From sequence record NC_028903.1: a DNA stretch of 64,000 nucleotides; one strand, written 5' to 3'. Position numbers and translations under genes: made by a program. Shown here in pieces: positions 1,866 to 13,248 of this stretch (its first letter is position 1; the number at the start of each line of letters is the position of its first letter). This stretch comes from Escherichia phage 172-1. The notes under the pieces are model-generated. The model was not told the origin of the DNA and ran no database searches. It saw nothing but the letters and a program-made list of their open reading frames with translations.

Positions 1866-2162
1866 TCAATTATCACTGTTAATCTCCTGCTGCTTAGCAA
1901 TAGCCACTCGCAAGTCTTCATTAGCACGAGCAAGGCGCAACACTTCATGATTGAGATTCTGAAGACGCTTGTTTCTGTCTTCAACTTGCATAATAAGATC
2001 GTTAAGAGTTGCTTTAACTTTCTCATTATACATCTCATCCACTCGAACTAGGGACTTATACATTCTCTCCCAGCTTGCTGCTTTGTTTCTAAGGATAATA
2101 AATCCTAGAACGCTGATAGTTAAACAGAGTACAAAAAGGAATTTATATACTTCTAAAGTCAT
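1866..2162 (-). CDS. membrane-anchored coiled-coil protein
   Basis: 98 aa; N-terminal hydrophobic helix then heptad-like charged region. Confidence 0.45.
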   Translation of the reverse strand: MTLEVYKFLFVLCLTISVLGFIILRNKAASWERMYKSLVRVDEMYNEKVKATLNDLIMQVEDRNKRLQNLNHEVLRLARANEDLRVAIAKQQEINSDN

Positions 2163-2361: not shown

Positions 2362-2751
2362 TTATTCCCTAGAGCTATTATCGAACACTAAATCGCCACA
2401 ATACATAGGATTGGCATACCATTTTGGCACCCCTTCGCTCTTACTCTGAAAGTAAGTCCCACTATACAGCGGAACATAATTCTTCTTAAGGGCACGTTTA
2501 GCAAGTCGCTCGCTTTCTCCAATGGCTTGCTTAGTCATCGGATTTTTATCACGAATCAGCTTTACATAACGTTTATAAGGTTTCTCCTGTTTTAATAGTA
2601 CCGGAATCCACTCAAACTGGTTCTTTTGTCTTATCACCTGTTCAGCGGTCAGTTTTCGTTGGGCCATTCTATTTATCACGGTATCCGCAACTAAAGCCTT
2701 ACATGCGGTTGGCTGGTTCCCTGCCTCATAATAAATAGTCAATGTCAACAT
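2362..2751 (-). CDS. SleB/CwlJ-like cell wall hydrolase
   Basis: 129 aa; IYYEAGNQP...VADTVINR and NQFE motifs typical of SleB hydrolase domain. Confidence 0.55.
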   Translation of the reverse strand: MLTLTIYYEAGNQPTACKALVADTVINRMAQRKLTAEQVIRQKNQFEWIPVLLKQEKPYKRYVKLIRDKNPMTKQAIGESERLAKRALKKNYVPLYSGTYFQSKSEGVPKWYANPMYCGDLVFDNSSRE

Positions 2752-2864
2752 TAGCTGGGCCGTTGTTATCAGAACTTGCTACCTCCTGTTTTGTTGTTTC
2801 AATAAACACCCTCGAAAAGATGCTTATAGAAACACCCATCCCTTTCGGAATAGGTGCTATCTTT

Positions 2865-3182
2865 CTATTTATAACTTACACCATCACCTTTTACAGCTAT
2901 TGTAAGTGGCGATCTGGTGTTTAATGGGGTGAAGTTCATGTCCAGCTCATATCCCACTTTGAGAATCAATTTCAACAATGTGTCGATGGAGAACTTTGAA
3001 AGCTGTCCATTCATGAGGCTACTAATCCTCGGCTGGCTAACACCTAGCTTCTCTGCGGCAACACACTGCGACCAACCTTGATCACGAATTAACTTCGTAA
3101 GAATAATGATCAGCTTGGACTTCAATGAAAGCATGTTGGCCTCTACAGGGTCTGTACTTATCAGCTCGAACGGGTTTTTCAT
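2865..3182 (-). CDS. XRE-family HTH protein resembling HigA-type antitoxin
   Basis: 105 aa; HTH core AAEKLGVSQPRISSLMNGQ followed by FSIDTLLKLI; ATG at 3180-3182. Confidence 0.6.
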   Translation of the reverse strand: MKNPFELISTDPVEANMLSLKSKLIIILTKLIRDQGWSQCVAAEKLGVSQPRISSLMNGQLSKFSIDTLLKLILKVGYELDMNFTPLNTRSPLTIAVKGDGVSYK

Positions 3183-3206
3183 ATAAAATTCCTATACAAT
3201 AGGCAT

Positions 3207-3232
3207 AAAAAAGCCCCAGCCGTAGCCGGGGC
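3207..3232 (-). terminator. rho-independent terminator-like hairpin
   Basis: GCCCC-a-GC / GC-c-GGGGC stem preceded on plus strand by A6, giving a T6 tail on the minus transcript. Confidence 0.45.
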
Positions 3233-3381
3233 GGTTATTAACGTGATACTGCTTCCATGAATCCTATCATAAGTATCAATAAGGTGATAATAACACCAAA
3301 AAGCATACCACATAGGAAGAAAAATCCACCTTCCCCTAAATATGAAATAGCTGATTCCACGGATAACTCCTACAGCAACGC

Positions 3382-3403
3382 AAAAAGCCGCTCAAAGGCG
3401 GCT
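3382..3403 (-). terminator. rho-independent terminator
   Basis: AGCCGC / GCGGCT stem with 6 nt loop, U-run on minus transcript; follows gene 3484..3927. Confidence 0.5.
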
Positions 3404-3483
3404 ATGTGGAAGCTTCAAATGGGGAGAGGGCACGACGCGACAGAAAGAGCGTCATAGTACTAAAAGAGGGGACTGTATTCCTA

Positions 3484-3927
3484 CTACTTAACCCTTGCCT
3501 CTTTGATGGGGTCAATGTATTTCTCAACGCCCCACTTGTGTTTACTGTCTGCGTAGAAAACATCAGGCGCACACTGGCTACTTTTAGGGAATGCTTGAGG
3601 GTCTTTCGTGCTACCTTTAAACTTCTGCTTACCACGGGTGCGACCATTACAGAAGATTTCTAACTTCTTCTCCTCTTCTGTTTTAGCTCCCCCGCTCTTT
3701 AATAAAGAACGTTTATGATCGGCTAACAATAACGCATCAGCACGATGAACGCGATGGCCTACACGCTTTGCCACACTAGAAGGAATATGAGATTCAGCCT
3801 CAGCCTTTGCAGCACGACGTTTTAAACTGCGCTTACTGACGTGATTGGTTGCCTTTGGCTTCTCTTTCTCCAGTTCAGAGATAGAAAAACAACGCCCGCC
3901 TTTCATGCTGATTTTTGATTTAGCCAT
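3484..3927 (-). CDS. basic hypothetical protein
   Basis: 147 aa, K/R-rich; no recognisable domain. Confidence 0.45.
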   Translation of the reverse strand: MAKSKISMKGGRCFSISELEKEKPKATNHVSKRSLKRRAAKAEAESHIPSSVAKRVGHRVHRADALLLADHKRSLLKSGGAKTEEEKKLEIFCNGRTRGKQKFKGSTKDPQAFPKSSQCAPDVFYADSKHKWGVEKYIDPIKEARVK

Positions 3928-3996
3928 TGTCTTATTCCTTTTAGTGATAAGTTATATCGGGCAAGCCCATCAAGGTGACAGGCTTGAACAAATAAC

Positions 3997-4206
3997 TCAA
4001 TCAAGTAAACCGAATGACTTCCAACTGCGTAGAAGGATTGTACCATCATCCATAGTCACGCATAACTTTAGTAGTTTCTTATTGGCACTGCTTACCGTTG
4101 TAATTCGTCCGGTTGTGCATTTACCTTTATTGCTGTAAAGATATATAACACGACGGCCTAACAAACGAGATGGCGCTTTCTTAAACTCTGAAATATTAGT
4201 GATCAT
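3997..4206 (-). CDS. hypothetical protein
   Basis: 69 aa ORF in tightly packed operon. Confidence 0.4.
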   Translation of the reverse strand: MITNISEFKKAPSRLLGRRVIYLYSNKGKCTTGRITTVSSANKKLLKLCVTMDDGTILLRSWKSFGLLD

Positions 4207-4427
4207 AATGCTTGATACCTTTGAATATGTTCAATACGGGTAGATTGAGCAAATGACGCTTTAACCGCCATCTTTCTAACTTCTTCCTTACGTTGGTTAG
4301 TGTGCACAGTATCCCAATGATTGTTATCACGTTGGCGCTGTAATATCTTACTACATTTGCGATGGTTCCCCGTGCTGCGATGTTTCTCACAAATAGGACA
4401 CTTGCCAAAATTATTACTGAATATCAT
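4203..4427 (-). CDS. hypothetical protein with Cys/His cluster
   Basis: 74 aa; CPICEKHRSTGNHRKC suggests a small zinc-binding motif. Confidence 0.4.
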   Translation of the reverse strand: MIFSNNFGKCPICEKHRSTGNHRKCSKILQRQRDNNHWDTVHTNQRKEEVRKMAVKASFAQSTRIEHIQRYQAL

Positions 4428-4642
4428 TTTCTTAATCCCATCTTTCTTAAGATACGGCCTAACGTTGTTTCTTGCGTGATAATATAGCTGATCGCCTCAC
4501 GTTCCAACGTTTCAATTTTCATTGGCGACGGATACCATTCACCAGTAAGCACGCATTTACATTCAACGCCATACTTTTTAGATAGTCGGTAATGTTGACC
4601 GTTGACAAGATTCCGATAAATCGTGGTATGCGTAATTAACAT
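4424..4642 (-). CDS. hypothetical protein
   Basis: Track start is GTG; nearest ATG at 4640-4642 (MLITHTT...). Confidence 0.4.
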   Translation of the reverse strand: MLITHTTIYRNLVNGQHYRLSKKYGVECKCVLTGEWYPSPMKIETLEREAISYIITQETTLGRILRKMGLRK

Positions 4643-4753: not shown

Positions 4754-5653
4754 TTATACTGCCTGACGTGCCGCCATAATCTCAGCTGCCTTGCGCAATA
4801 CTTCTTCCTCTTCTTCTTTCGCAGCTTGTTCGGTACGGGTAGCAACCGTTGAAGAGATACGACCGCGCAGACTTTCTAACTTCTCCTGAATAGCCGCAAT
4901 AGTCTTTTCCATTTCATCAGCGTATGAATCGAGCGATTCCAGCTCCTTGCTTGATGCGTTCATCAGATAATCGTCTGAGATCGCTACCGTTGAGGCCGTG
5001 ACTTTCTTGATGAGTGAATCAAAGGACTTTTTAACCTTGCCCACGTCTTCACTCAAGGCAATAGTGTTATCACTGGTAGCGCCATTGCGCTCATCAGCCA
5101 GCAATTTGGCTTCAATACGGATTGCATTCAAGCGTTCAACTAAAGAGTAAATATCCTGATTAAAATCTTCCTTATTTTTCGCCGGGATTTGAAGGTGGGC
5201 CGCCACGTTGTCATTGCAACCTTTGAAGAAGTTAGGATTATCGACTTCAATTTCACGGCCTAAAGCAAAGTTTTCGAAAGCATTTGACCAGCGAGCGCGG
5301 TTTTGTTCCATTTTGGCCTTAATTTGCGCTTCTTTCGCATCTTCTTTCGCTTTCGCTTCACCTTCCAGATTAATCCACTTTTTACGCCCATTTGCCGCAT
5401 CGGTGTTGAACTTGATAGGAGTTAAGAAAGTAATTGCAGTGGCGATCACGTCCATATCGCGGAAACGTTCGGTTAACAGAAAATCAACTGCCGACTGCAA
5501 TACGTCCAGCTTTTTACCGTTACTGCGGAAGTGCTGCAAGTGCCCTAACAGAAAATTAGAAACATCCTGTTTAATCGCCGCGTTATTGCTGCGGATATTG
5601 TTAGCCAGTGCGTTAAAGCCAGATTCTTTTACCAGATTGAAAATTTTAGCCAT
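4754..5653 (-). CDS. first early protein after leader (function unknown)
   Basis: 300 aa; ATG at 5651-5653 with GGTGA RBS; helical, charged C-terminus. Confidence 0.55.
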   Translation of the reverse strand: MAKIFNLVKESGFNALANNIRSNNAAIKQDVSNFLLGHLQHFRSNGKKLDVLQSAVDFLLTERFRDMDVIATAITFLTPIKFNTDAANGRKKWINLEGEAKAKEDAKEAQIKAKMEQNRARWSNAFENFALGREIEVDNPNFFKGCNDNVAAHLQIPAKNKEDFNQDIYSLVERLNAIRIEAKLLADERNGATSDNTIALSEDVGKVKKSFDSLIKKVTASTVAISDDYLMNASSKELESLDSYADEMEKTIAAIQEKLESLRGRISSTVATRTEQAAKEEEEEVLRKAAEIMAARQAV

Positions 5654-5754
5654 GATATTCACCTTTCAATTGTAAGGGCACTATGCCCCGCTCTCTATGA
5701 GCTTTTTAAGTCGCCATTGACTTATCAATAAACACTCATCATTAAGTAATTATT

Positions 5755-5802
5755 GATAAGCGGGGCGGTCTTATCAGGAGTTAACCTTGCCGCCCCCTTA
5801 TC
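5755..5802 (-). other. long stable hairpin in early leader (candidate RNase III or regulatory site)
   Basis: GATAAG-c-GGGGCGG pairs with CCGCCCC-CTTATC, 13 bp stem with one bulge, 21 nt loop, ~100 nt upstream of first early ORF. Confidence 0.4.
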
Positions 5803-6473
5803 CGTGATGTTTCATCTGGTATCTTTAATTAGTCGCTATAAACGAAGCCGACCTGATAGCGATGATCAATCATCACAATAAGGCAGTGCGTCCGACTCTA
5901 TTTAATTACATTGCTGTAACCGTCGGCAATATCGTTTATTATACTTTCGCTCTCGCTTATCCTTTATATCAGCTCTCAATCGCTAGTCATCGCCCACTAC
6001 GGGATACTGTTGCGAAAAAGTCACTAACCGCCTAACATTCCGGCGTTTTATATCTTTCGGCGAGTTTACTACATAAACCGACTATGTACTTTCATCATAA
6101 GACGAATCTCAAGCCGTTCGCATCGTAAACGTTCACACTAAACCTTATTGTTAAATAGCAATTTGCTACCCTTTAACCACCCCCCGCCGCTCTCAATTGA
6201 GCGTTAATTCGTCGGGCTTGTCTGCCCTGATTAGCTTTTTCACTGTAGCACCGTGTTAGCGATGGCCGCCGCTACCCTTAACCGTGGGCGATTAGCTTAA
6301 ACCGTTGCGTGTACTCAATGAGTCCGCTTATCAGTGGTGACGTTTCCAGTTAAGGGATTGTAAAACTGTTTACCCTGATGTTTTAGGGAGTTTTACGCCG
6401 TTTTATCTGGTATGCTTTCCGATGGTTATTATCTTCCAGCATATTTAACCGATATATGGGGACGTTTAAATTA

Positions 6474-6484
6474 TTAAAGAGCGG
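6474..6484 (-). promoter_or_regulatory. boxA-like element (CCGCTCTTTAATAAT on minus transcript)
   Basis: Matches rrn/lambda boxA core GCTCTTTAA. Confidence 0.45.
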
Positions 6485-6572
6485 TAAATCTGTCAGTGTG
6501 CTTTCTCACACTACGCAACTGTTAGCCGTTGTTACGCTTTTCACTGAAGCGGTGTTTTGCTTGAGTGTGCTC

Positions 6573-6601
6573 ATTATGGACCATGATGTTTTCGCTGTCA
6601 A
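6573..6601 (-). promoter_or_regulatory. sigma70-type early promoter P3 (TTGACA-N17-CATAAT)
   Basis: -35 at 6596-6601, -10 at 6573-6578 read on minus strand. Confidence 0.6.
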
Positions 6602-6706
6602 TCGCTTTTTTAATCTTTTTCGTCGTTCCCTTTATTGGGAGGATATATCAATCAGCTTTATTTGATTGAAGATTAAGCGATAAGGCTTAACTCATGATTC
6701 ATATTG

Positions 6707-6717
6707 TTAAAGAGCGG
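6707..6717 (-). promoter_or_regulatory. boxA-like element (CCGCTCTTTAACAAT)
   Basis: Near-identical to E. coli rrn boxA GCTCTTTAACAA. Confidence 0.5.
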
Positions 6718-6834
6718 TTACTACATTCACAGCTTAACACGTCGTGTTAGCTTGTCAAACTCTTTTTATCATCTTCTTTTATTCTTTTCCCTTATCTCGC
6801 GTGAATCTATGCGAAAGGGCAAGATGATAAATTT

Positions 6835-6845
6835 TTAAAGAGCGG
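6835..6845 (-). promoter_or_regulatory. boxA-like element (CCGCTCTTTAAAAAT)
   Basis: ~25-40 nt downstream of P2 start site. Confidence 0.45.
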
Positions 6846-6876
6846 GGATGTTTCACGTCATCGCTGACTTGTGCTC

Positions 6877-6904
6877 ATTATAGGTTAGGCTTTCCAGTTG
6901 TCAA
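6877..6904 (-). promoter_or_regulatory. sigma70-type early promoter P2 (TTGACA-N16-TATAAT)
   Basis: Perfect consensus hexamers; -35 at 6899-6904, -10 at 6877-6882 on minus strand. Confidence 0.7.
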
Positions 6905-6943
6905 ATACTTTTTCAAGTATTTTTTCACTTTCTAGCCTGATTT

Positions 6944-6953
6944 TTAAAGAGCG
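6944..6953 (-). promoter_or_regulatory. boxA-like element (CGCTCTTTAAAAA)
   Basis: Inside repeat copy A. Confidence 0.4.
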
Positions 6954-7092
6954 TTTAAAGCTGTATGGCTCCCATAACACCATTTGATAATCAGATAACC
7001 TGCGATTATTCCGGGGAATGGTATCCGCCTGCCTGCGTCTGACTTGCTTCACTCACTAGGGAGTTACTTGAGCGGTCATCTTGTCTTTCTAA

Positions 7093-7173
7093 GCTCATTA
7101 TAGTTCAGGCTTTCCGGCTGTCAAATACTTTTTCAAGTATTTTTTCACTTTCTAGCCTGATTTTTAAAGAGCG
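7093..7173 (-). repeat. ~81 bp direct repeat copy B (promoter P1 plus AT hairpin plus boxA)
   Basis: Near-identical to 6873..6953. Confidence 0.8.
7097..7124 (-). promoter_or_regulatory. sigma70-type early promoter P1 (TTGACA-N16-TATAAT)
   Basis: Perfect consensus hexamers; -35 at 7119-7124, -10 at 7097-7102 on minus strand. Confidence 0.7.
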
Positions 7174-7174
7174 G
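7164..7174 (-). promoter_or_regulatory. boxA-like element (CCCCGCTCTTTAAAAA)
   Basis: Inside repeat copy B. Confidence 0.4.
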
Positions 7175-7293
7175 GGCAAGTTTCCTTGCCTTGTATGTTT
7201 TACATCGTACCCGATACAAATCAGTATACGCCAGCTTTCACGAAGTGCAATAGGGTAAGGCAAATTATTTTAAACTTTTTCACTATAGGAAGA

Positions 7294-7305
7294 TAAAAGA
7301 GCGGG
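7294..7305 (-). promoter_or_regulatory. boxA-like element variant (CCCGCTCTTTTA)
   Basis: Sixth copy of the AGAGCGG core in the same orientation. Confidence 0.35.
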
Positions 7306-7411
7306 CGCACGTGATACATCAAAGGAAACGGCTTGCATTGCAACAATAGGCGGCCTAAAACGCACTATAGCGAGCTAAAAGGGAGTAAGGTATACAATCA
7401 CCTTATAAAAG

Positions 7412-7436
7412 AAAAAAGCCTCATGGCGAGGCTTTT
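7412..7436 (-). terminator. rho-independent terminator (weaker on plus strand)
   Basis: GCCTC / GAGGC stem, A6 upstream and T4 downstream on plus; ends the 8855..7511 operon. Confidence 0.6.
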
Positions 7437-7510
7437 AGGGAGGTTTTAAAGCATCAGATAGATTATGACCATAGGCATGACCACGGCACAATAAAGGAGA
7501 AAGATCAAGC

Positions 7511-7876
7511 CTATGGATTTACACATTGACCATTACCGGACTCAATTTCATTCATGGACTCATCAAAGAGCGTCAACGATGAGCGCATCAAGTGATTGAC
7601 CGTGATTTGTTTACCAGTGATTTCATTTACCAGTAAAATAGTTTTACTATCTGATTGCACATGATCAAAATCATTTACATGCAAAATAATAACCTTAGGT
7701 GACTTTTTACCGGTTTCATAGTTTTCTATAAGGTAGGTACATTGCAAGCCGTCAACCGTAGCAGGGGAAAACGTTGCAGCCTTAACGCTACCCATAGCCG
7801 ATAACAGCACACCTAACAGAAGAATGACCAGAAAAAAGCCTACAACCGTTTTAATGACGAATCTAATAAACCACAT
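7511..7876 (-). CDS. secreted early protein (signal peptide)
   Basis: 121 aa; N-terminal hydrophobic segment followed by AxA-like cleavage region. Confidence 0.5.
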   Translation of the reverse strand: MWFIRFVIKTVVGFFLVILLLGVLLSAMGSVKAATFSPATVDGLQCTYLIENYETGKKSPKVIILHVNDFDHVQSDSKTILLVNEITGKQITVNHLMRSSLTLFDESMNEIESGNGQCVNP

Positions 7877-8069
7877 AACAATAAACCTCTTTAATTAGTT
7901 TAAGAATATCGAAAGCGGCAACAATCAATAAATAGTTTAAAGAAACGAAGCCAATGACAAACAAAAACAGAAAGAACACAACCGGACACCTAAAAAACGT
8001 AAGAATAAAGCATATCAGCGACGAACAACGCCACTGCAACAACGAATAAGCAACGCAAAAAATAATCAT
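7863..8069 (-). CDS. small membrane protein
   Basis: 68 aa, strongly hydrophobic. Confidence 0.35.
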   Translation of the reverse strand: MIIFCVAYSLLQWRCSSLICFILTFFRCPVVFFLFLFVIGFVSLNYLLIVAAFDILKLIKEVYCYVVY

Positions 8070-8082
8070 GAATCATTTTTTG

Positions 8083-8334
8083 TCACCATTTTGGCAGATC
8101 ACAATCAAGAAGACCAGCAAGCGACAAATCACCGTCAACATAGATCGAACGAAAATCATCGCGATTAATATCAATGCGCACCAATTGGAGCCATCTTTTG
8201 GCCTCGTTAAAACTCATGGAACAAAAGGCAACGGTAGGCAGTATTACGCTACCTTCTTTCAAGCCGAACGAGATAAAAGTATCACAAACAAAACAAGAAA
8301 CACCGCTGGATAATTTGATCACTTTGTTACTCAT
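8083..8334 (-). CDS. hypothetical protein
   Basis: 83 aa ORF in operon. Confidence 0.4.
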   Translation of the reverse strand: MSNKVIKLSSGVSCFVCDTFISFGLKEGSVILPTVAFCSMSFNEAKRWLQLVRIDINRDDFRSIYVDGDLSLAGLLDCDLPKW

Positions 8335-8363
8335 TTTTTTGTTACTCCTGAAAAATAGGTTAT

Positions 8364-8855
8364 TTATTTACTGGCCTTGATGCAGTTGGCTAAATTAATG
8401 TGAACGGTATAAACAGCGTTATCAGCGTTATTGTAAACAGTAGTCGCAATCATCGACTGATTAACCGGGCCATAACTGACCAGATTCGTGACAGCTTTCG
8501 CATGGCTGTAACGTTGTACAGTGCCATACGTCACCATATCCGCATCGTTATCAGTACGCTTGAGAACTAGATCACTGTTAGACTGATTGTCTAGTGTTTT
8601 GGTACTAACGACCAGACCATCACGGGAAACGTTACTAAATTTAACCTTTAAAACGACCTGATTGGTGTCACTATCAGCACCATTGCAAATCATCCAACCT
8701 TTATTGATGGAACTAACGAAGACACTAGCCGCATCAGTTGCAGGAGCAGGACTAGCAACAGCCTTATCAGGAAAGGAAGTTACCAGCGCACTAACACCGA
8801 TCGCGGCGACTAGTGCATAACTTGCCAGATTAATCATCTGCATTGGTTTAGTCAT
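8364..8855 (-). CDS. secreted early protein (signal peptide)
   Basis: 163 aa; N-terminal MTKPMQMINLASYALVAAIGVSALV... signal-like segment. Confidence 0.5.
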   Translation of the reverse strand: MTKPMQMINLASYALVAAIGVSALVTSFPDKAVASPAPATDAASVFVSSINKGWMICNGADSDTNQVVLKVKFSNVSRDGLVVSTKTLDNQSNSDLVLKRTDNDADMVTYGTVQRYSHAKAVTNLVSYGPVNQSMIATTVYNNADNAVYTVHINLANCIKASK

Positions 8856-8890
8856 TTGTGAAGCCTCATTGATATGTAATAGATAGGGAT

Positions 8891-8919
8891 ATAATAGGAC
8901 ACGCTTTCTTACATTGCAA
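8891..8919 (-). promoter_or_regulatory. sigma70-like promoter (TTGCAA-N17-TATTAT) for operon 8855..7511
   Basis: Hexamers read on minus strand ~30 nt upstream of start. Confidence 0.5.
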
Positions 8920-9154
8920 CCATCTTCCTAACTTTCTTTCTTTCTACTAAAAGTAGCGCCATTGAACTTACTAGTCCTATTTCTTGGGCTTAACTTGCTA
9001 TCAGTGAACGATTCGACTACTTCACAAACGATCAGAACAAGTAAAGGAAATACTACAGCCATTGCCATCATTATTAAGATAATCATTTCTATCACTTCAA
9101 TCACTCAATCAATAGGCTTCAATTTACTACTACTTAACAAGGAAGACAAGCGAC

Positions 9155-9222
9155 CACGGGTAAACTATTTCTACTATATAGGACGGGGCATACAACAACC
9201 GCAGAACAGACCACGGGGAAAC
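9155..9222. repeat. three CACGGG(G)-core direct repeats (~28 bp period)
   Basis: ccacgggtaaac, gacggggcatac, ccacggggaaac read in sequence. Confidence 0.5.
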
Positions 9223-9565
9223 ATAGCAAGATAGTGCGGTAATAATATACCACTTAAATAATTGTATAACTCAAACATCAAAGATCATTCGCTACGCTCA
9301 TGCACGCTGAAAAAGAAAGTAATAAAAGAAATAATAACATACATCAATCATTATCCACTTAATTAATACATACATCATTATTGCACTCATAATAATAACT
9401 ATTGAAACTATTTACAATCAAACTATGGGGGAAGTGGGTAGTAACTAGGGGGTATTATTAGCCTATTCATAGTGCCTTAATCTGATTGCTATACAGTGAC
9501 TAGCCTTTCACTCACTCTTTAAAGGGGAACTAAATAAACGGGTAGGTAATGAATAGGATGGTATA

Positions 9566-9605
9566 CACGGGGAAAGAATAACGGGGAGTAGGCACGGGGA
9601 AAGGT
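9566..9605. repeat. three tandem ~14 bp repeats (c)ACGGGGA(AAG)
   Basis: cacggggaaagaat / aacggggagtagg / cacggggaaaggt. Confidence 0.55.
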
Positions 9606-9787
9606 TGGAACGTGGAAGGAGGTGTAAAGGCATTGCCAATAACCATTTTTTATTTGAGGACTCCCCCTTTTTAACAATTCGCCGCAGAGCGCCCAGCCCC
9701 ACTCGGTCAAATCAGAATTTTAAACAGATATATACATCTTTATTTTTTATAAATCTGTATTTTAAACTGTTATATATAAGGTTAAGT

Positions 9788-9949
9788 ATGAATCTAATTA
9801 AAGTATTTAGACGGATGAAGTGTAAGCACAATTACTATCTTCTTCGTAAAGCTTACGGGGATGAAAGGATACATGGTTTGTACCTATCAACATGGAAGTG
9901 TAAGGAATGTGGTAAGTTGAGATTCAGTACATGGGTGGATAGGCCTTAA
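9788..9949 (+). CDS. small zinc-ribbon-like protein
   Basis: 53 aa from ATG 9788; CKHN...CKEC motif pair. Confidence 0.35.
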   Translation: MNLIKVFRRMKCKHNYYLLRKAYGDERIHGLYLSTWKCKECGKLRFSTWVDRP

Positions 9950-9954
9950 CATGA

Positions 9955-10050
9955 CATGGCCTTTATGAGAGTACCCTTTACTTCAGAGTACACGGGTTGT
10001 TGGTATGAGGGTGCCTTTACGGGTTGGTCTTATGATGTGCCCTTTATACT
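9955..10050. repeat. iteron-like direct repeats TATGA(G/T)nGTGCC(C)TTTA(C/T) x3-4
   Basis: Copies at ~9964, 10004 and 10031, with a partial copy at 9955. Confidence 0.5.
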
Positions 10051-10168
10051 TTTATTCAGAGGATAAGAATATGAGGTTTTTAAAAGAACTACACTCCTTG
10101 ATTTATAAGGACATAGTGTACTCAGTATCCCGCAATGCATGGTTCTACCAAAAAGGTGGCAACGGTGA

Positions 10169-10459
10169 ATGGGTAGATTGAATCTTACTCAGAGGAGAAG
10201 AATTATGAATTTAGTATTAGACTTTTTATCAGAGATGGTGCCTCGGTTCAGAACGGAGACATACGCTTTCGTAGTCAACAGTGACTCTGAAGATGGGATG
10301 GAAGCTACGTGCTTAGGTCGTCTTGTTGATTTAGATGATGAAACAGGTTTCGATATTACAATTGATGTGAGTAGCTTAGGTTGGCTCTTCTTCAGAGCAT
10401 TCCGCACTTACAAAGTAGAAACATATAAAGATTACAGTAAGGGAGATACAGATGAATAA
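10169..10459 (+). CDS. hypothetical protein
   Basis: 96 aa; alternative start at 10205 has the better GAGGAG RBS. Confidence 0.4.
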   Translation: MGRLNLTQRRRIMNLVLDFLSEMVPRFRTETYAFVVNSDSEDGMEATCLGRLVDLDDETGFDITIDVSSLGWLFFRAFRTYKVETYKDYSKGDTDE

Positions 10460-11015
10460 TTTAATCAAAGCGATGGACCTTAACGAGTATAATTCACAGC
10501 TATGTCGCTCTGGTTGTAGCTTACAGCATTTAGAAACTATGGGAAACATCTCAGGATTGGCTGTACAAGATTTGTATAGTGGAAGTATTCTTAAACCAAA
10601 TATTACGGAGAACAAAAACATGTTAGATTTGATTCATACTACTCGCCCTAATTCTAAAACACAACCATCTACTCTGGAAGTAGTTGAATACGAATCTACT
10701 AAACATGACCACCTCCCTGACTATGCTCGTGCAATGATTGAGATGATTGAAGAAGCTGAATATGAAATGCTCCATGATTACATTACCTCCAAAGATGAAT
10801 GGCATCGTGATGTTCGAATTGAAGAAGATGGTACAGAAACAATTACGTGGATTCACAAGAGTGAGTTAGTAGACGACGCACTGCGAGACTACGAAAAATT
10901 TTTGGTCGACGGCTCTATTCTTTTAGAGGAAGAGAAGGGTGTAGAACTTCCGTGGGAGGGTGAGGTAGTTACTTTAGGTAAGATGTTTAACCTGTCCGTT
11001 GGTGATTGTAAGTAA
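10452..11015 (+). CDS. acidic hypothetical protein
   Basis: 187 aa, D/E-rich. Confidence 0.45.
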   Translation: MNNLIKAMDLNEYNSQLCRSGCSLQHLETMGNISGLAVQDLYSGSILKPNITENKNMLDLIHTTRPNSKTQPSTLEVVEYESTKHDHLPDYARAMIEMIEEAEYEMLHDYITSKDEWHRDVRIEEDGTETITWIHKSELVDDALRDYEKFLVDGSILLEEEKGVELPWEGEVVTLGKMFNLSVGDCK

Positions 11016-11706: not shown

Positions 11707-13248
11707 ATGTCATTAGATAAACAAATTTATGAAGCTCTAACTGGTAACAATCTTAGTGTAGACGAAAAGAAAGCACTATTGAATATGTTGAAAGAGCGTG
11801 ACCAATGGAGGAAGTATAATAGGATTTTGTCTTTCAAGGCGTATGACTTCCAAAAGAAATTTTATGCAGCAGGATTGAAGCATCGCTTTAGATTCTTGTG
11901 TGCAGCGAACCGTGTTGGTAAATCTTATAGCGAGGCATACGAGTTTGCTTGTCATGTCACAGGTCGCTACCCAACTTGGTGGACAGGATATAAATTTAAA
12001 AGACCTATCTTAGCATGGGCAGTTGGTATTACAGGGGATTCCACAAGGAAGGTATTGCAAAAGGAATTGTTTGGTACACCTATCGGAAAGGATACAAATT
12101 TATTAGGGACAGGTGTCATTCCTCGTGATGCTATCGTCATTGATACGATAGAACGAGATGGTAACAAACTTCAAATCGTACAAATCAAACATCAAAATGA
12201 GAGAGGAGAGTTTGACGGTTTAAGTACATTAGAATTCCGTTCAACCCAACAGGGTGAACACACATTGATGGGTGCAACAGTTGACTATATATGGCTTGAT
12301 GAAGAGGATCCATATGAGTCTATGGCTATATTCGCACAGTGCGTCACACGTACACTCACAACTAAAGGTCTAGTTACAATTACAGCTACACCAGAGAACG
12401 GTTTAACTGAACTGGTAGATAAATTTATGAAAGGTGAAGGGGATGAGAACACAGGTTCTCTATATTTCCAGAATGCTTCTTGGTGGGATGCTCATGCAGA
12501 CCTAGGTGGACACATCACTGACCAAGATATAAAAGATATGACTGAAGGTATTCCAGCATGGCAGTTAGAGATGCGTTCAAAAGGTATGCCATTGTTAGGA
12601 AGTGGTTTGATATATGATGTATCGGATGACACAATTAAATGTGAACCATTCGAAATTCCTGATACGTGGAAACGTGTCTGTGCAATTGATATTGGTATCG
12701 ATCACCCAACTGCTGCTGTTTGGACAGCTTACGATGCAAACACGGATACTATCTATGTTTACGACTCATATAAAGAAGGTGGCTTTACTCCAGTGTATCA
12801 TGCTCCAGCTATTAATGGTCGTGGTCAGTGGATTCCTGTCATCCTACCGCATGATGCGGACAATACTGAGAAAGGTAGTGGTTCATCTGTTGCTCAATTC
12901 TATAAGAATGCAGGAGTTAACGTACAGAGTGAGACCTTCTACAACAAAATTGGAATGGATGGTAAAAAGAACTTCTTTGTAGAACCGGGAATCACAGATA
13001 TCCGAGAAAGAATGATGAGTGGACGCTTTAAAGTCTTTAACACAGCCGCTAACGCTAAGCTATTCGAAGAGAAAGCTAGATATCACCGTAAGGTTGGTAA
13101 GATTATTAAAGAACATGATGACTTAATGGATGCAATGCGCTATTCAGCGTGCTCTGTTACACATCGTGGTCGCTCTAAGCATGATGTTAGCTACGGAAGC
13201 GCTTCTTTGTATGAGGCAAACGTAAGCAGATGGAATCAGAGCTACTAA
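11707..13248 (+). CDS. terL: terminase large subunit
   Basis: 513 aa; Walker A-like AANRVGKSY, Walker B-like IWLDEE; precedes portal. Confidence 0.85.
   Translation: MSLDKQIYEALTGNNLSVDEKKALLNMLKERDQWRKYNRILSFKAYDFQKKFYAAGLKHRFRFLCAANRVGKSYSEAYEFACHVTGRYPTWWTGYKFKRPILAWAVGITGDSTRKVLQKELFGTPIGKDTNLLGTGVIPRDAIVIDTIERDGNKLQIVQIKHQNERGEFDGLSTLEFRSTQQGEHTLMGATVDYIWLDEEDPYESMAIFAQCVTRTLTTKGLVTITATPENGLTELVDKFMKGEGDENTGSLYFQNASWWDAHADLGGHITDQDIKDMTEGIPAWQLEMRSKGMPLLGSGLIYDVSDDTIKCEPFEIPDTWKRVCAIDIGIDHPTAAVWTAYDANTDTIYVYDSYKEGGFTPVYHAPAINGRGQWIPVILPHDADNTEKGSGSSVAQFYKNAGVNVQSETFYNKIGMDGKKNFFVEPGITDIRERMMSGRFKVFNTAANAKLFEEKARYHRKVGKIIKEHDDLMDAMRYSACSVTHRGRSKHDVSYGSASLYEANVSRWNQSY

Follow-up and report, generated by a model that had tools for sequence, protein, structure and literature searches.

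Gene content of the cassette

The window, that is, the whole stretch of DNA analyzed here, comprises 64,000 nt of a Kuravirus, the phiEco32-like podophage 172-1 (NC_028903.1). A cassette of genes runs leftward in it from 8855 to 7511, and the late genes run rightward from ~10.2 kb. The closest relative record is that of NJ01, with 93.8% identity across the cassette region. The cassette sits ~650 bp inward from the 193-bp direct terminal repeat described in PMC4281155 and PMC9965538. The window holds a single collapsed copy of this repeat (~193 bp, 9502..9694), which marks the physical genome end; its coordinates were obtained by comparing the window sequence with the phiEco32 ends by eye and are approximate.

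The two larger genes of the cassette exist on the minus strand, as the preliminary description had proposed, and both are conserved coding genes. The ORF at 8364..8855 encodes p163 (163 aa; phrog_21410, E = 6e-106), which consists of an N-terminal hydrophobic export/anchor segment, a Pro/Ala linker and a predicted beta-barrel. The ORF at 7511..7876 encodes p121 (121 aa; phrog_13168), in which a 22-residue N-terminal hydrophobic helix precedes a beta-rich domain. Among ~96 Gordonclarkvirinae records, p163 was found in 92 and p121 in 85. The two proteins were rejected as paralogues of each other (hhalign probability 0.1%). Each cassette gene is preceded by a Shine-Dalgarno sequence, such as the GAGG located 8 nt ahead of the p163 ATG, and five hydrophobic-helix products are packed into 1.6 kb.

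Two genes had been omitted from the earlier gene list. The first, at 8334..8083 on the minus strand, encodes p83, a small soluble protein of 83 aa orthologous to phiEco32 gp127 (phrog_14176), with AGGAG ahead of its ATG. No window of p83 reaches a KD value of 1.6, and the protein is presumably cytoplasmic. The p83 family is restricted to kuravirus-sized contigs, and the gene is missing from L013. A paralogous relationship between p83 and gp126 was not significant (E = 0.2). The other omitted gene, at 9086..8928 on the minus strand, encodes p52 (also p58; phrog_7482), a 52-aa peptide with one membrane-spanning segment and a basic C-terminus. NJ01, O18-011, MN05 and N1203 have it annotated, and its substitution pattern is coding-like. 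The proposal of an operon of secreted and membrane proteins is borne out in silico for p163 and p121, given their hydrophobic N-termini, but p83 does not fit it.

Database labels attached to two of these genes are spurious. The 83 aa of p83 contain no Pfam or NCBIfam polymerase domain and the 121 aa of p121 no terminase domain; the true large terminase gene lies at 11707..13248. The "polymerase" and "terminase" labels are carried by the NJ01, phiEco32, ECBP2 and Paul records and by the PHROG family names.

The region between p83 and p121 required a new gene model. A small membrane protein had been placed at 7863..8069, where a 68-aa ORF (8069..7863) does exist. However, this ORF is a chimera in the wrong frame: its first 30 codons run off-frame over one small gene, pep28, and its final 38 codons belong to another peptide, pep38. 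The ORF was discarded as a gene: in N1203 an interruption leaves only 43 aa of it, 5/10 genomes do not have it at all, and the conserved frame differs. The conserved gene pep28 (7990..8076, minus strand) encodes a single-helix hydrophobic peptide of 28 aa, MIHDYFLRCLFVVAVALFVADMLYSYVF. Its frame and stop column are conserved in 10/10 genomes, with TAA, TGA and TAG all occurring as stops, and it is annotated in Bas92 as a 29-aa CDS. In P0115, a 75-kb contig, a natural pep28::p121 fusion carries the pep28 N-terminus in place of the p121 signal segment, which indicates that the pep28 helix is able to replace that segment. The hydrophobic 38-aa pep38 (7863..7979, minus strand) starts at a GTG located 7 nt behind an AGGTG, overlaps the p121 start by 14 nt and lies in a 112-nt insertion. 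It is found only in genomes with this insertion, namely the window, NJ01, N1203, XT32 and ES17. In the latter three, a 1-nt indel upstream shifts the insert frame relative to the pep28 region, and the pep38 sequence is kept; several of the differences among genomes are synonymous. We hold pep38 as a putative gene with lower confidence than pep28.

The middle of the cassette is variable among relatives. A deletion has removed the p121 gene from O18-011, and MN05 retains a truncated copy. In Bas92, the p163-p83-pep28-p121 block is part of the main early operon, to which it has moved as a unit; its downstream junction falls inside the terminator loop.

Regulatory elements and relation to the phiEco32 early unit

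A promoter scan recovered the sigma70-like sequence TTGCAA-N17-TATTAT that had been proposed at 8919..8891 (minus strand), with a 9/12 match; transcription is expected to start near 8884, ~29 nt ahead of the p163 ATG. Matches of 9/12 occur here at chance frequency (11 found vs. 11.4 expected in shuffles). The match score alone is thus weak, and the promoter is credible because its hexamers are conserved across genomes. Both hexamers are invariant in the window, NJ01, PGN6866, O18-011, MN05 and N1203, while the spacer and flanks vary. An alternative allele occupies the same place in four genomes: TTGACA-N16-TATAGT stands at the homologous position of phiEco32, Ptacy1532 and IME267, and ES17 shares their -10 but reads TTTGACA instead of GTTGACA at the -35. 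This allele is a near-consensus promoter (11/12, counted by hand). XT32 has no promoter at the 8919-type position. Given that XT32 lacks the site and that Bas92-type phages are without this promoter, a promoter of its own is not essential to the cassette. We also considered a promoter for gp36, the phage sigma factor. The -35 region contains AATGTA (AATGTG in MN05) without the flanking consensus bases of tAATGTAtA, and this candidate was rejected; none of the 8 exact gp36-type AATGTATA sites lies in or near the cassette.

Whether 8919..8891 is a functional start needs to be weighed against a start further upstream, in which the promoter or promoters would reside in conserved non-coding blocks located after the terminal repeat and ahead of the 52-aa gene, and the unit would begin at or beyond ~9250. 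Such an arrangement would accommodate the chance-level 9/12 match and the missing site in XT32. The -35 hexamer follows the stop codon of the 52-aa gene at a distance of 9 nt with no intervening terminator; p52 is a possible extra first gene of the transcription unit in the 172-1 lineage. In addition, the upstream blocks, which are nearly invariant in 8 genomes, hold an extended -10-like TGGTATATT and TTGATT-N18-TATTAT. However, the hexamers at 8919..8891 stay invariant in six genomes while their surroundings vary, the homologous site bears a near-consensus allele and is an early promoter, ahead of CDS125, according to SU10 Table S2, and a hairpin followed by a T-rich stretch at 9216..9199 separates the upstream blocks from the genes. 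We therefore regard an exclusively upstream start as quite improbable, and both starts could hold together.

The terminator that had been placed at 7412..7436 was recovered by scanning and folding. It spans 7405..7436 on the minus strand and consists of the stem AAAAGCCTC/GAGGCTTTT, a loop and a T-run. The hairpin at 7436..7414 with its T-run folds at -12.5 kcal/mol (z = -2.5). In phiEco32, SU10, O18-011, MN05 and L013 the stem is conserved and the loop is variable, and the element is also given in SU10 Table S2.

As a separate observation, the adjacent spacer contains an undescribed, covariation-supported structured RNA of ~0.9 kb, modelled with 43 helices. An Rfam scan of 5000-10500 returned two matches only, close to E = 1 and far under the gathering scores. 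This structured RNA is the larger prize of the neighborhood.

The cassette is orthologous, gene by gene, to phiEco32 genes 128-125 and SU10 CDS125-121. Identities to phiEco32 are 82% for p163 (against the C-terminal half of gp128), 55% for p83 (gp127) and 90% for p121 (gp125). Gene order, leftward orientation and the terminal-repeat position at the right genome end are all common to the cassette and the phiEco32 unit. The phiEco32 and SU10 units have a homologous promoter site, a matching terminator hairpin and then a matching spacer with several promoters. They differ from the 172-1 cassette in several respects. The ~125-aa N-terminal domain of phiEco32 gp128 is not present in p163, and phiEco32 gp126 and a neighboring small ORF are missing from 172-1. 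On the other hand, 172-1 carries the 112-nt insert with pep38, the upstream 52-aa peptide gene and the weaker TTGCAA/TATTAT promoter allele.

In phiEco32, the leftward cluster belongs to an experimentally defined early, sigma70-dependent class that is shut off by gp79 (PMC8948821, PMC12276001). The temporal class is known for phiEco32 alone, from macroarrays to which PMC8948821 refers. From the sequence and these relatives, we infer early timing for the cassette in the 172-1 phage. The idea that the genes form an early operon, with a sigma70-like promoter and a terminator of its own, therefore holds by orthology with phiEco32 128-125 and by position. As stated, it adds little, since the transcription architecture is already published for SU10 and phiEco32. 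Table S2 of the SU10 paper gives the homologous promoter and terminator and the arrangement in SU10 is described as being "like phiEco32". The text and supplementary tables of that paper assign neither function nor localization to the CDS125-121 proteins and contain no 28-aa cassette gene.

Predicted export and fold of the cassette proteins

The N-termini of p163 and p121 had been described as signal-peptide-like. Both follow the Sec-type layout of a positive n-region, a hydrophobic h-region and small residues at -3/-1. In p163, K3 precedes an uncharged hydrophobic stretch at residues 4-29 (segment 9-27), and a candidate cleavage site, AVA|SP, follows residue 34 in the Pro/Ala linker. In p121, R5 and K9 precede an uncharged stretch at residues 10-31, and VKA|AT follows residue 33. 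These calls of export, cleavage and topology are inferences from simple sequence rules. The h-region of a Sec signal is typically ~7-15 residues long and evolves freely; the uncharged stretches of p163 and p121 are 22-26 residues long. Thus, the hydrophobic stretches and (-3,-1) sites stand, but the two N-termini are at least as anchor-like as they are cleaved-signal-like. The lipobox [LVI][ASTVI][GAS]C was absent from the first 40 residues of every cassette product, which ruled out a lipoprotein reading for p163 and p121.

Conservation in p163 peaks in the hydrophobic segment. Compared with phiEco32, all 7 changes in the 17 helix codons are synonymous; the 118 barrel codons have 25 synonymous and 20 non-synonymous changes. 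Between the window and the distant clade, identity is 87% in the helix, 41% in the barrel and 18% in the linker. The helix is weakly hydrophobic (mean KD 1.29), with 38% Ala/Gly/Ser/Thr. Homologues of 286-291 aa carry this segment internally, behind KKNKKQPIK, a position in which it has to serve as an N-in/C-out anchor. Both p163 clades show gain or loss of the ~125-aa N-terminal domain of such long forms. Judged from the sequences and relatives together, the cassette products of 172-1 would have a corresponding membrane topology.

The AF2 model of p163 shows an 8-stranded up-and-down beta-barrel with an N-terminal helix (pLDDT 88-92 over residues 41-160). C57 and C158 are invariant (alignments A1 and A6), and we model the barrel as periplasmic and closed by a predicted disulfide. 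The beta-rich domain of p121 likewise has two invariant cysteines, C46 and C118, and mean column identity in alignments A2 and A7 is 88-95%. The AF2 model of p121 was poor (pLDDT 52.7), with only the helix at 2-28 confident.

With its N-terminal helix, 8-strand up-and-down barrel and predicted disulfide, the p163 model may be akin to calycin/lipocalin-like barrels. However, the matches were weak (E at least 4e-4, TM ~0.4, 10-16% identity) and no lipocalin motif is conserved; the distant clade does not have the G53-W54 pair of p163. In a Foldseek search against the PDB, the best matches of the p163 model were designed barrels and lipocalins (TM ~0.4), with no bacterial inhibitor family among the top matches, and the BFVD fold search found family members and generic barrels only. 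A profile search of 1.84 billion representatives for remote p163 homologues returned only 5 family clusters and three giant proteins. The latter (Ig/cadherin-repeat or otherwise unrelated) were attributed to composition and repeats.

For the cassette proteins as a whole, searches of Pfam and NCBIfam gave no match above threshold, PADLOC none at E ≤ 1, and a sequence search against solved structures none. Sub-threshold Pfam matches to PknH_C, EF-hand_10, Imm19 and YobH were below the gathering cut-offs and were set aside; those to Imm19 and YobH fell on hydrophobic stretches. The PHROG families of the cassette have no assigned function or are mislabelled. Sequence, profile and fold searches revealed no likeness to exclusion, immunity, inhibitor or defence proteins, and database searches revealed no host homologues. 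The cassette proteins are clade-restricted orphans.

Possible roles during infection

Known phage systems offer analogies for such a cassette. T4 Imm and Sp are small early superinfection-exclusion proteins, expressed from host-polymerase promoters, with N-terminal inner-membrane anchors; they act from the membrane or periplasm and are dispensable in laboratory growth. The cassette resembles them in encoding small early proteins with a predicted N-terminal hydrophobic membrane anchor, but it shares no sequence or fold similarity with them and comprises a predicted barrel, a tether and mini-peptides. T5 Llp and phi80/T1 Cor are receptor-blocking phage lipoproteins that guard an infected cell against renewed adsorption or injection. 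Like them, p163 and p121 are predicted to be phage-encoded exported proteins; unlike them, they have no lipobox cysteine. The kuravirus receptor is a glycan and not FhuA. Iap, encoded by the temperate Pseudomonas phage D3, whose receptor is O-antigen, is an inner-membrane peptide of 31 aa; it inhibits Wzy, the O-antigen polymerase, and takes part in lysogenic conversion. The cassette also has tiny single-helix peptides, two to three in number (pep28, pep38 and p52), and O-antigen is likewise required by kuraviruses (PMC11990801). The peptides have no detectable similarity to Iap, and the parallel is no more than an analogy.

On balance, we lean towards reading the cassette as the terminal-repeat-proximal immediate-early unit of a Kuravirus, equivalent to phiEco32 128-125, that is directed to the envelope and serves an accessory modification or guarding of the envelope after genome entry. 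Host sigma70 RNA polymerase would initiate at the 8919..8891 promoter; some transcripts might also begin further upstream and run through the 52-aa peptide gene. About 1.5 kb would be transcribed until the hairpin at 7436..7414, keeping the unit apart from the main early region, which would be driven by four much stronger promoters. By analogy with phiEco32, a gp79 homologue may later shut the unit off. The conserved Ala/Gly/Ser-rich helix of p163 would insert N-in/C-out and present a disulfide-bonded 8-stranded periplasmic barrel on a flexible Pro/Ala tether, and p121 would likewise contribute a periplasmic beta-rich domain held by a disulfide. As mini-proteins of a single helix, pep28 and pep38 would sit in the inner membrane, and p83 would remain cytoplasmic. 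The role would most likely be accessory, either exclusion of superinfecting phages or interference with an envelope/O-antigen pathway. We read the cassette as accessory because O18-011 and MN05 have lost p121, L013 has no p83, the middle is variable and the Bas92 block has moved. A core replication function is unlikely.

The near universality of p163 (92 of ~96 records) fits a more important role than that of a dispensable accessory gene. The cassette might instead serve the phage's own infection cycle in the envelope, by sealing or steadying the envelope at the entry nozzle, helping genome entry or timing lysis in the manner of the T4 antiholin RI. Its genome-end position next to the terminal repeat plausibly puts it among the first DNA expressed, and the helix of p163 is Ala/Gly/Ser/Thr-rich, weakly hydrophobic and under strong purifying selection. 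Such a composition resembles that of signal-anchor-release domains; T4 RI combines a weakly hydrophobic helix of this type with a small periplasmic domain. That domain, however, is helical, and a beta-barrel is predicted for p163. Moreover, p121 and p83 are lost in viable isolates, and the fast divergence of the barrel (41% identity between clades) points to a variable external partner more than to a conserved one of the phage. We consider a role in the phage's own cycle unlikely. Equally doubtful is that the cassette proteins are host-takeover or anti-defence effectors acting on an inner-membrane or periplasmic machine, for instance a protease, enzymes of division or of the cell wall, or a membrane-bound effector of abortive infection. 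In phiEco32-like phages, early genes have been described as likely host-takeover genes (PMC8948821), and Gordonclarkvirinae resist most of the defence systems tried on them, with no known mechanism (PMC11990801). The conserved p163 transmembrane helix suggests a specific intramembrane partner, and the 125-aa N-terminal domain was gained or lost in both clades; as an optional cytoplasmic domain of the long forms, it would add a second activity. Against this, Pfam, PADLOC and NCBIfam revealed no similarity to known anti-defence or takeover proteins and no host homologues were found; in silico, takeover is also inseparable from the exclusion hypothesis.

All of these readings presuppose that the proteins are made and reach the envelope. 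It is conceivable that the hydrophobic N-termini are incidental and the proteins cytoplasmic, or that the ORFs are not expressed; the export calls follow simple rules, and the part of the SU10 virion and lysate proteomics considered here contains no CDS121-125 product. But the reading frames are conserved, many of the p163 changes between the window and phiEco32 are synonymous and every gene has its Shine-Dalgarno sequence. Stretches of 22-26 hydrophobic residues with positive-inside flanks, paired invariant cysteines and the crowding of five hydrophobic-helix products within 1.6 kb further argue against it, and we consider it exceedingly improbable.

The envelope-directed accessory unit could also take a more specific form, which we put forward tentatively and consider improbable as it stands: a new immediate-early envelope effector set, in which the p163 helix docks on a host inner-membrane machine, for example, that of O-antigen/LPS assembly or export. 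If so, the p163 barrel, p121 and the mini-peptides would block or rewire the machine that makes the kuravirus receptor, and competitor exclusion or protection of the infected cell would rely on a mechanism with no relation to that of T4 Imm/Sp or of receptor-masking lipoproteins.

Kuraviruses are common therapeutic-candidate coliphages, and their early biology is almost unstudied. The present analysis corrects the gene model, with the 28-aa and 38-aa peptides replacing the 68-aa ORF, and does away with two propagated labels, "polymerase" and "terminase". In silico, the first Kuravirus transcription unit appears to be an envelope-directed cassette. The cassette thus offers a testable target for how Kuraviruses may exclude competitors or change the O-antigen-bearing surface.

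Genome position and gene content of the cassette

The 1.8 kb around the leftward cassette (8855..7511) was 93.8% identical to phage NJ01, whose record places it in Kuravirus, Gordonclarkvirinae. A total of 79 phage records matched, all from phiEco32-type Escherichia/Shigella phages, and the first cassette protein, p163, was 100% identical to a phage 172-1 protein. Comparison by eye with the two ends of the phiEco32 record located one collapsed copy of the 193-bp direct terminal repeat in the window (approximately 9502-9694). Late genes are read rightward, starting at about 10.2 kb; the cassette genes are read leftward from 8855. Given the repeat position and the gene directions, the cassette is the first gene set inside the right genome end in phiEco32 coordinates. 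Judged by sequence, it is the counterpart of phiEco32 genes 128, 127, (126) and 125.

The preliminary description, an early operon of secreted and membrane proteins, was largely correct and needed three gene-model corrections. The ORFs at 8855..8364 (p163, 163 aa) and 7876..7511 (p121, 121 aa) matched PHROG families end to end (E = 6e-106 and 7e-80), and a Shine-Dalgarno sequence precedes both. p163 occurred in 92 phage records and p121 in 85, for a reference count of about 96 records whose large terminase is at least 80% identical to that of the window. These features indicate that both ORFs are real genes. Between them lies p83 (83 aa, 8334..8083, minus strand), previously omitted, which has no hydrophobic segment and is presumably cytoplasmic.

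A ten-genome alignment translated in all frames was used to assess the small ORFs. The 68-aa ORF at 7863..8069, proposed as a small membrane protein, proved to be chimeric, and the conserved peptide pep28 uses another frame. pep28 (28-29 aa; MIHDYFLRCLFVVAVALFVADMLYSYVF in the window, 8076..7990) was conserved in all ten genomes, with its stop codon in one alignment column throughout, variously TAA, TGA or TAG. Beyond the pep28 region, five of the ten genomes, including the window, carry a 112-nt insertion encoding a second conserved hydrophobic peptide, pep38 (38 aa, GTG start, 7979..7863). Immediately upstream of the insertion, N1203, XT32 and ES17 have a 1-nt indel that alters the frame of the insert relative to the pep28 region, and in N1203 the frame of the 68-aa ORF meets a stop after 43 codons. 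The pep28 frame is independently supported by a fusion in L013, a 75-kb metagenomic genome, where the pep28 N-terminus (MIRDYFWRVLFVATVALFA...) replaces the p121 signal segment. The fusion protein (P0115, L013 2501..2848) carries this N-terminus in frame with the mature part of p121. The pep28 gene is annotated in Bas92 as a 29-aa CDS.

Hydrophobic N-terminal segments and structure models

The N-termini of p163 and p121 had been described as signal-peptide-like. In p163, K3 precedes an uncharged stretch (residues 4-29) and AVA/SP follows it; in p121, R5 and K9 precede the uncharged stretch (residues 10-31) and VKA/AT follows. These features fit the description, but the segments may equally well be membrane anchors; that of p163 is conserved and, in long homologues, internal. 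The hydrophobic segment is the most conserved part of p163. Compared with a distant clade (about 45% identical overall), identity to the window protein was 87% in the segment, 41% in the barrel and 18% in the linker, which holds the putative cleavage site. Against phiEco32, the segment (17 codons) showed 7 synonymous and 0 non-synonymous changes, and the barrel (118 codons) 25 and 20, respectively. Since the segment has only synonymous changes, it is the protein, rather than the DNA, that is constrained. In the 286-291-aa homologues of both clades (phiEco32 gp128, Ptacy1532, the proteins P0083-P0090 and L013), the segment lies at approximately residues 135-152, after a 125-aa domain and KKNKKQPIK, a basic run. 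This internal position leaves an N-in/C-out membrane anchor as its only possible role in those proteins. For p121, the 22-residue hydrophobic stretch was modelled as one confident helix. The N-terminal sequences of p163 and p121 contain no lipobox. Each protein has exactly two cysteines, invariant across homologues (C57 and C158 in p163, C46 and C118 in p121), as expected for disulfide-bonded periplasmic domains. We conclude from these sequence features that the C-terminal domains of both proteins probably face the periplasm, either anchored or released by signal peptidase.

Both sequence clades contain p163 in a short form of about 163 aa and a long form of 286-291 aa, implying that a cytoplasmic module was gained or lost more than once. 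The long-form loci are L003 7945..8817 (phiEco32 gp128), L010 1044..1916, L013 1355..2230 and P0083-P0090. The extra N-terminal domain of about 125 aa had no Pfam match.

In the AlphaFold2 model of p163 (25-sequence alignment), residues 41-160 reached a pLDDT of 88-92 and form eight antiparallel strands after a short helix. The N-terminal 38 residues had low confidence, matching the expectation for an anchor and tether. Foldseek matched the model weakly to de novo beta-barrels and lipocalins in the PDB (E >= 4e-4, TM about 0.4), and among viral models to family members and generic barrels only. The p121 model was poor (pLDDT 52.7). The cassette proteins had no significant match in Pfam, NCBIfam, PADLOC or solved structures. 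In large-database searches, p163, p121 and p83 were confined to kuravirus-sized contigs. The only additions from a profile search of 1.84 billion representatives were three giant proteins, of which two have Ig/cadherin repeats; we regarded all three as compositional or repeat matches rather than remote homologues. We found no domain to justify calling the 83-aa p83 (phrog_14176) a 'polymerase' or 'DNA polymerase B region', or the 121-aa p121 (phrog_13168), which has a signal or anchor segment, a 'terminase', and rejected these labels. Besides the PHROG families, many GenBank records carry them, as do the NJ01, phiEco32, ECBP2 and Paul records.

Transcription signals and the downstream spacer

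A motif scan placed the proposed sigma70-like promoter, TTGCAA-N17-TATTAT, at 8919..8891 (minus strand). With a 9/12 score, the match alone is no better than chance: 11 of that quality were found in the region versus 11.4 expected from shuffles. Both hexamers are unchanged in six genomes (the window, NJ01, PGN6866, O18-011, MN05 and N1203), and the spacer and flanks vary. phiEco32, Ptacy1532, ES17 and IME267 have TTGACA-N16-TATAGT at the homologous place; in ES17 the base that precedes the -35 is different. The promoter is therefore credible because of its conservation, not because of its match score. The scan also found the terminator, a hairpin with a T-run at 7436..7414 (minus strand; -12.5 kcal/mol, z = -2.5), whose stem is constant and loop variable in phiEco32, SU10, O18-011, MN05 and one metagenomic genome. 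Table S2 of the SU10 paper lists the promoter at the homologous site and the terminator aagcctcactatgaggcttttttctttt. In phiEco32, experiments assign the leftward cluster at the right end to the early class, which the sigma70 holoenzyme transcribes and gp79 later shuts off (PMC8948821, PMC12276001). By orthology, expression of the cassette would be early, sigma70-dependent and later shut off. The transcription architecture first proposed thus appears to be right; it is not new, being already published for SU10 and phiEco32.

We also considered that the true start of the transcription unit lies elsewhere. The -35 hexamer lies 9 nt downstream of the end of a 52-aa single-pass peptide gene (9086..8928, minus strand; phrog_7482). 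Since no terminator lies between, transcripts of this peptide gene would read into the cassette in this lineage. Farther upstream, at about 9130..9500 (minus strand), two non-coding blocks are near-invariant in eight genomes and conserved above neighbouring genes. Within them are an extended -10-like TGGTATATT (about 9262..9250), TTGATT-N18-TATTAT (9421..9392) and a hairpin (9216..9199), all on the minus strand. The blocks may act as promoters, encode a small RNA or serve as a signal for packaging or replication.

A motif scan of the window found no gp36-type AATGTATA motif near the cassette. This motif is the core of the phage sigma (gp36) middle/late promoter consensus tAATGTAtA. Exact sites numbered 8 versus 2.8 expected: 2057..2064(-), 18572(+), 30205(+), 35439(+), 44894(-), 44967(+), 51456(-) and 56158(-).

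Just downstream of the cassette terminator is a 1.75-kb spacer found in 96 records at 82-94% identity, most of which annotate no gene there. It contains four tandem sigma70 promoters by motif scan (6573..7174, minus strand; 7124, 6904, about 6756 and 6601). Those at 7124 and 6904 are perfect TTGACA-N16-TATAAT and lie within an 81-nt direct repeat (6873-6953 and 7093-7173), so the window phage has one promoter copy more than the three listed for SU10 in Table S2. Four copies of CCGCTCTTTAA are present on the minus strand (6474, 6707, 6835, 7164; 0.06 expected), one of them predicted to pair with the Shine-Dalgarno region of a 302-aa gene (start 5662). From the last early promoter (6601..6573) to that Shine-Dalgarno, the segment 5680..6570 (minus strand) showed 92% column identity in an alignment of twelve genomes and no conserved ORF. 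Its consensus fold has 279 pairs in 43 helices, with 98.9% of cells paired. Covariation supports this fold strongly: compensatory double changes occurred in 39 pairs versus 17.5 +/- 2.5 in column shuffles (0/500 reached 39), and sliding the pairing partners gave 0-6. Rfam gave no match, and a literature search found nothing on such an RNA. This segment of about 0.9 kb is a candidate structured RNA, either an apparently undescribed early RNA or a leader.

Variation among relatives and possible role

Gene content between p163 and pep28 differs among genomes. p121 is cleanly deleted in O18-011 (L007 ~4100..4200), only its signal segment remains after an internal deletion in MN05 (L008 ~4050..4200), and p83 is absent from L013. 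In Bas92-type genomes (67-69 kb), the p163-p83-pep28-p121 block follows the gene 120 homologue within the main early operon and has no 8919-type promoter. Its downstream junction falls in the cassette terminator loop and destroys the terminator. The block spans 2690..4440 of Bas92 (L011) and is preceded by two intrinsic terminators. This behaviour indicates that the four genes travel together, that they typically have, but can do without, a promoter and terminator of their own, and that individual members are not essential.

The cassette products would be located in the envelope, as periplasmic disulfide-bonded domains and inner-membrane mini-peptides. The cassette might serve the phage's own entry or lysis timing, or it might have an anti-defence or takeover function. 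We favour an accessory envelope function straight after entry, by which the cassette may exclude superinfecting phages or interfere with an O-antigen or other envelope pathway. Such envelope jobs are done by T4 Imm and Sp, early membrane or periplasmic proteins, and by D3 Iap, a tiny membrane peptide, and this analogy is one reason for our preference. The accessory envelope role is further favoured because the cassette is modular and partly dispensable, because the periplasmic domain evolves fast and the anchor is fixed, and because kuraviruses depend on O-antigen (PMC11990801). The cassette proteins are uncharacterised and clade-restricted, and of a familiar kind, early phage envelope proteins.
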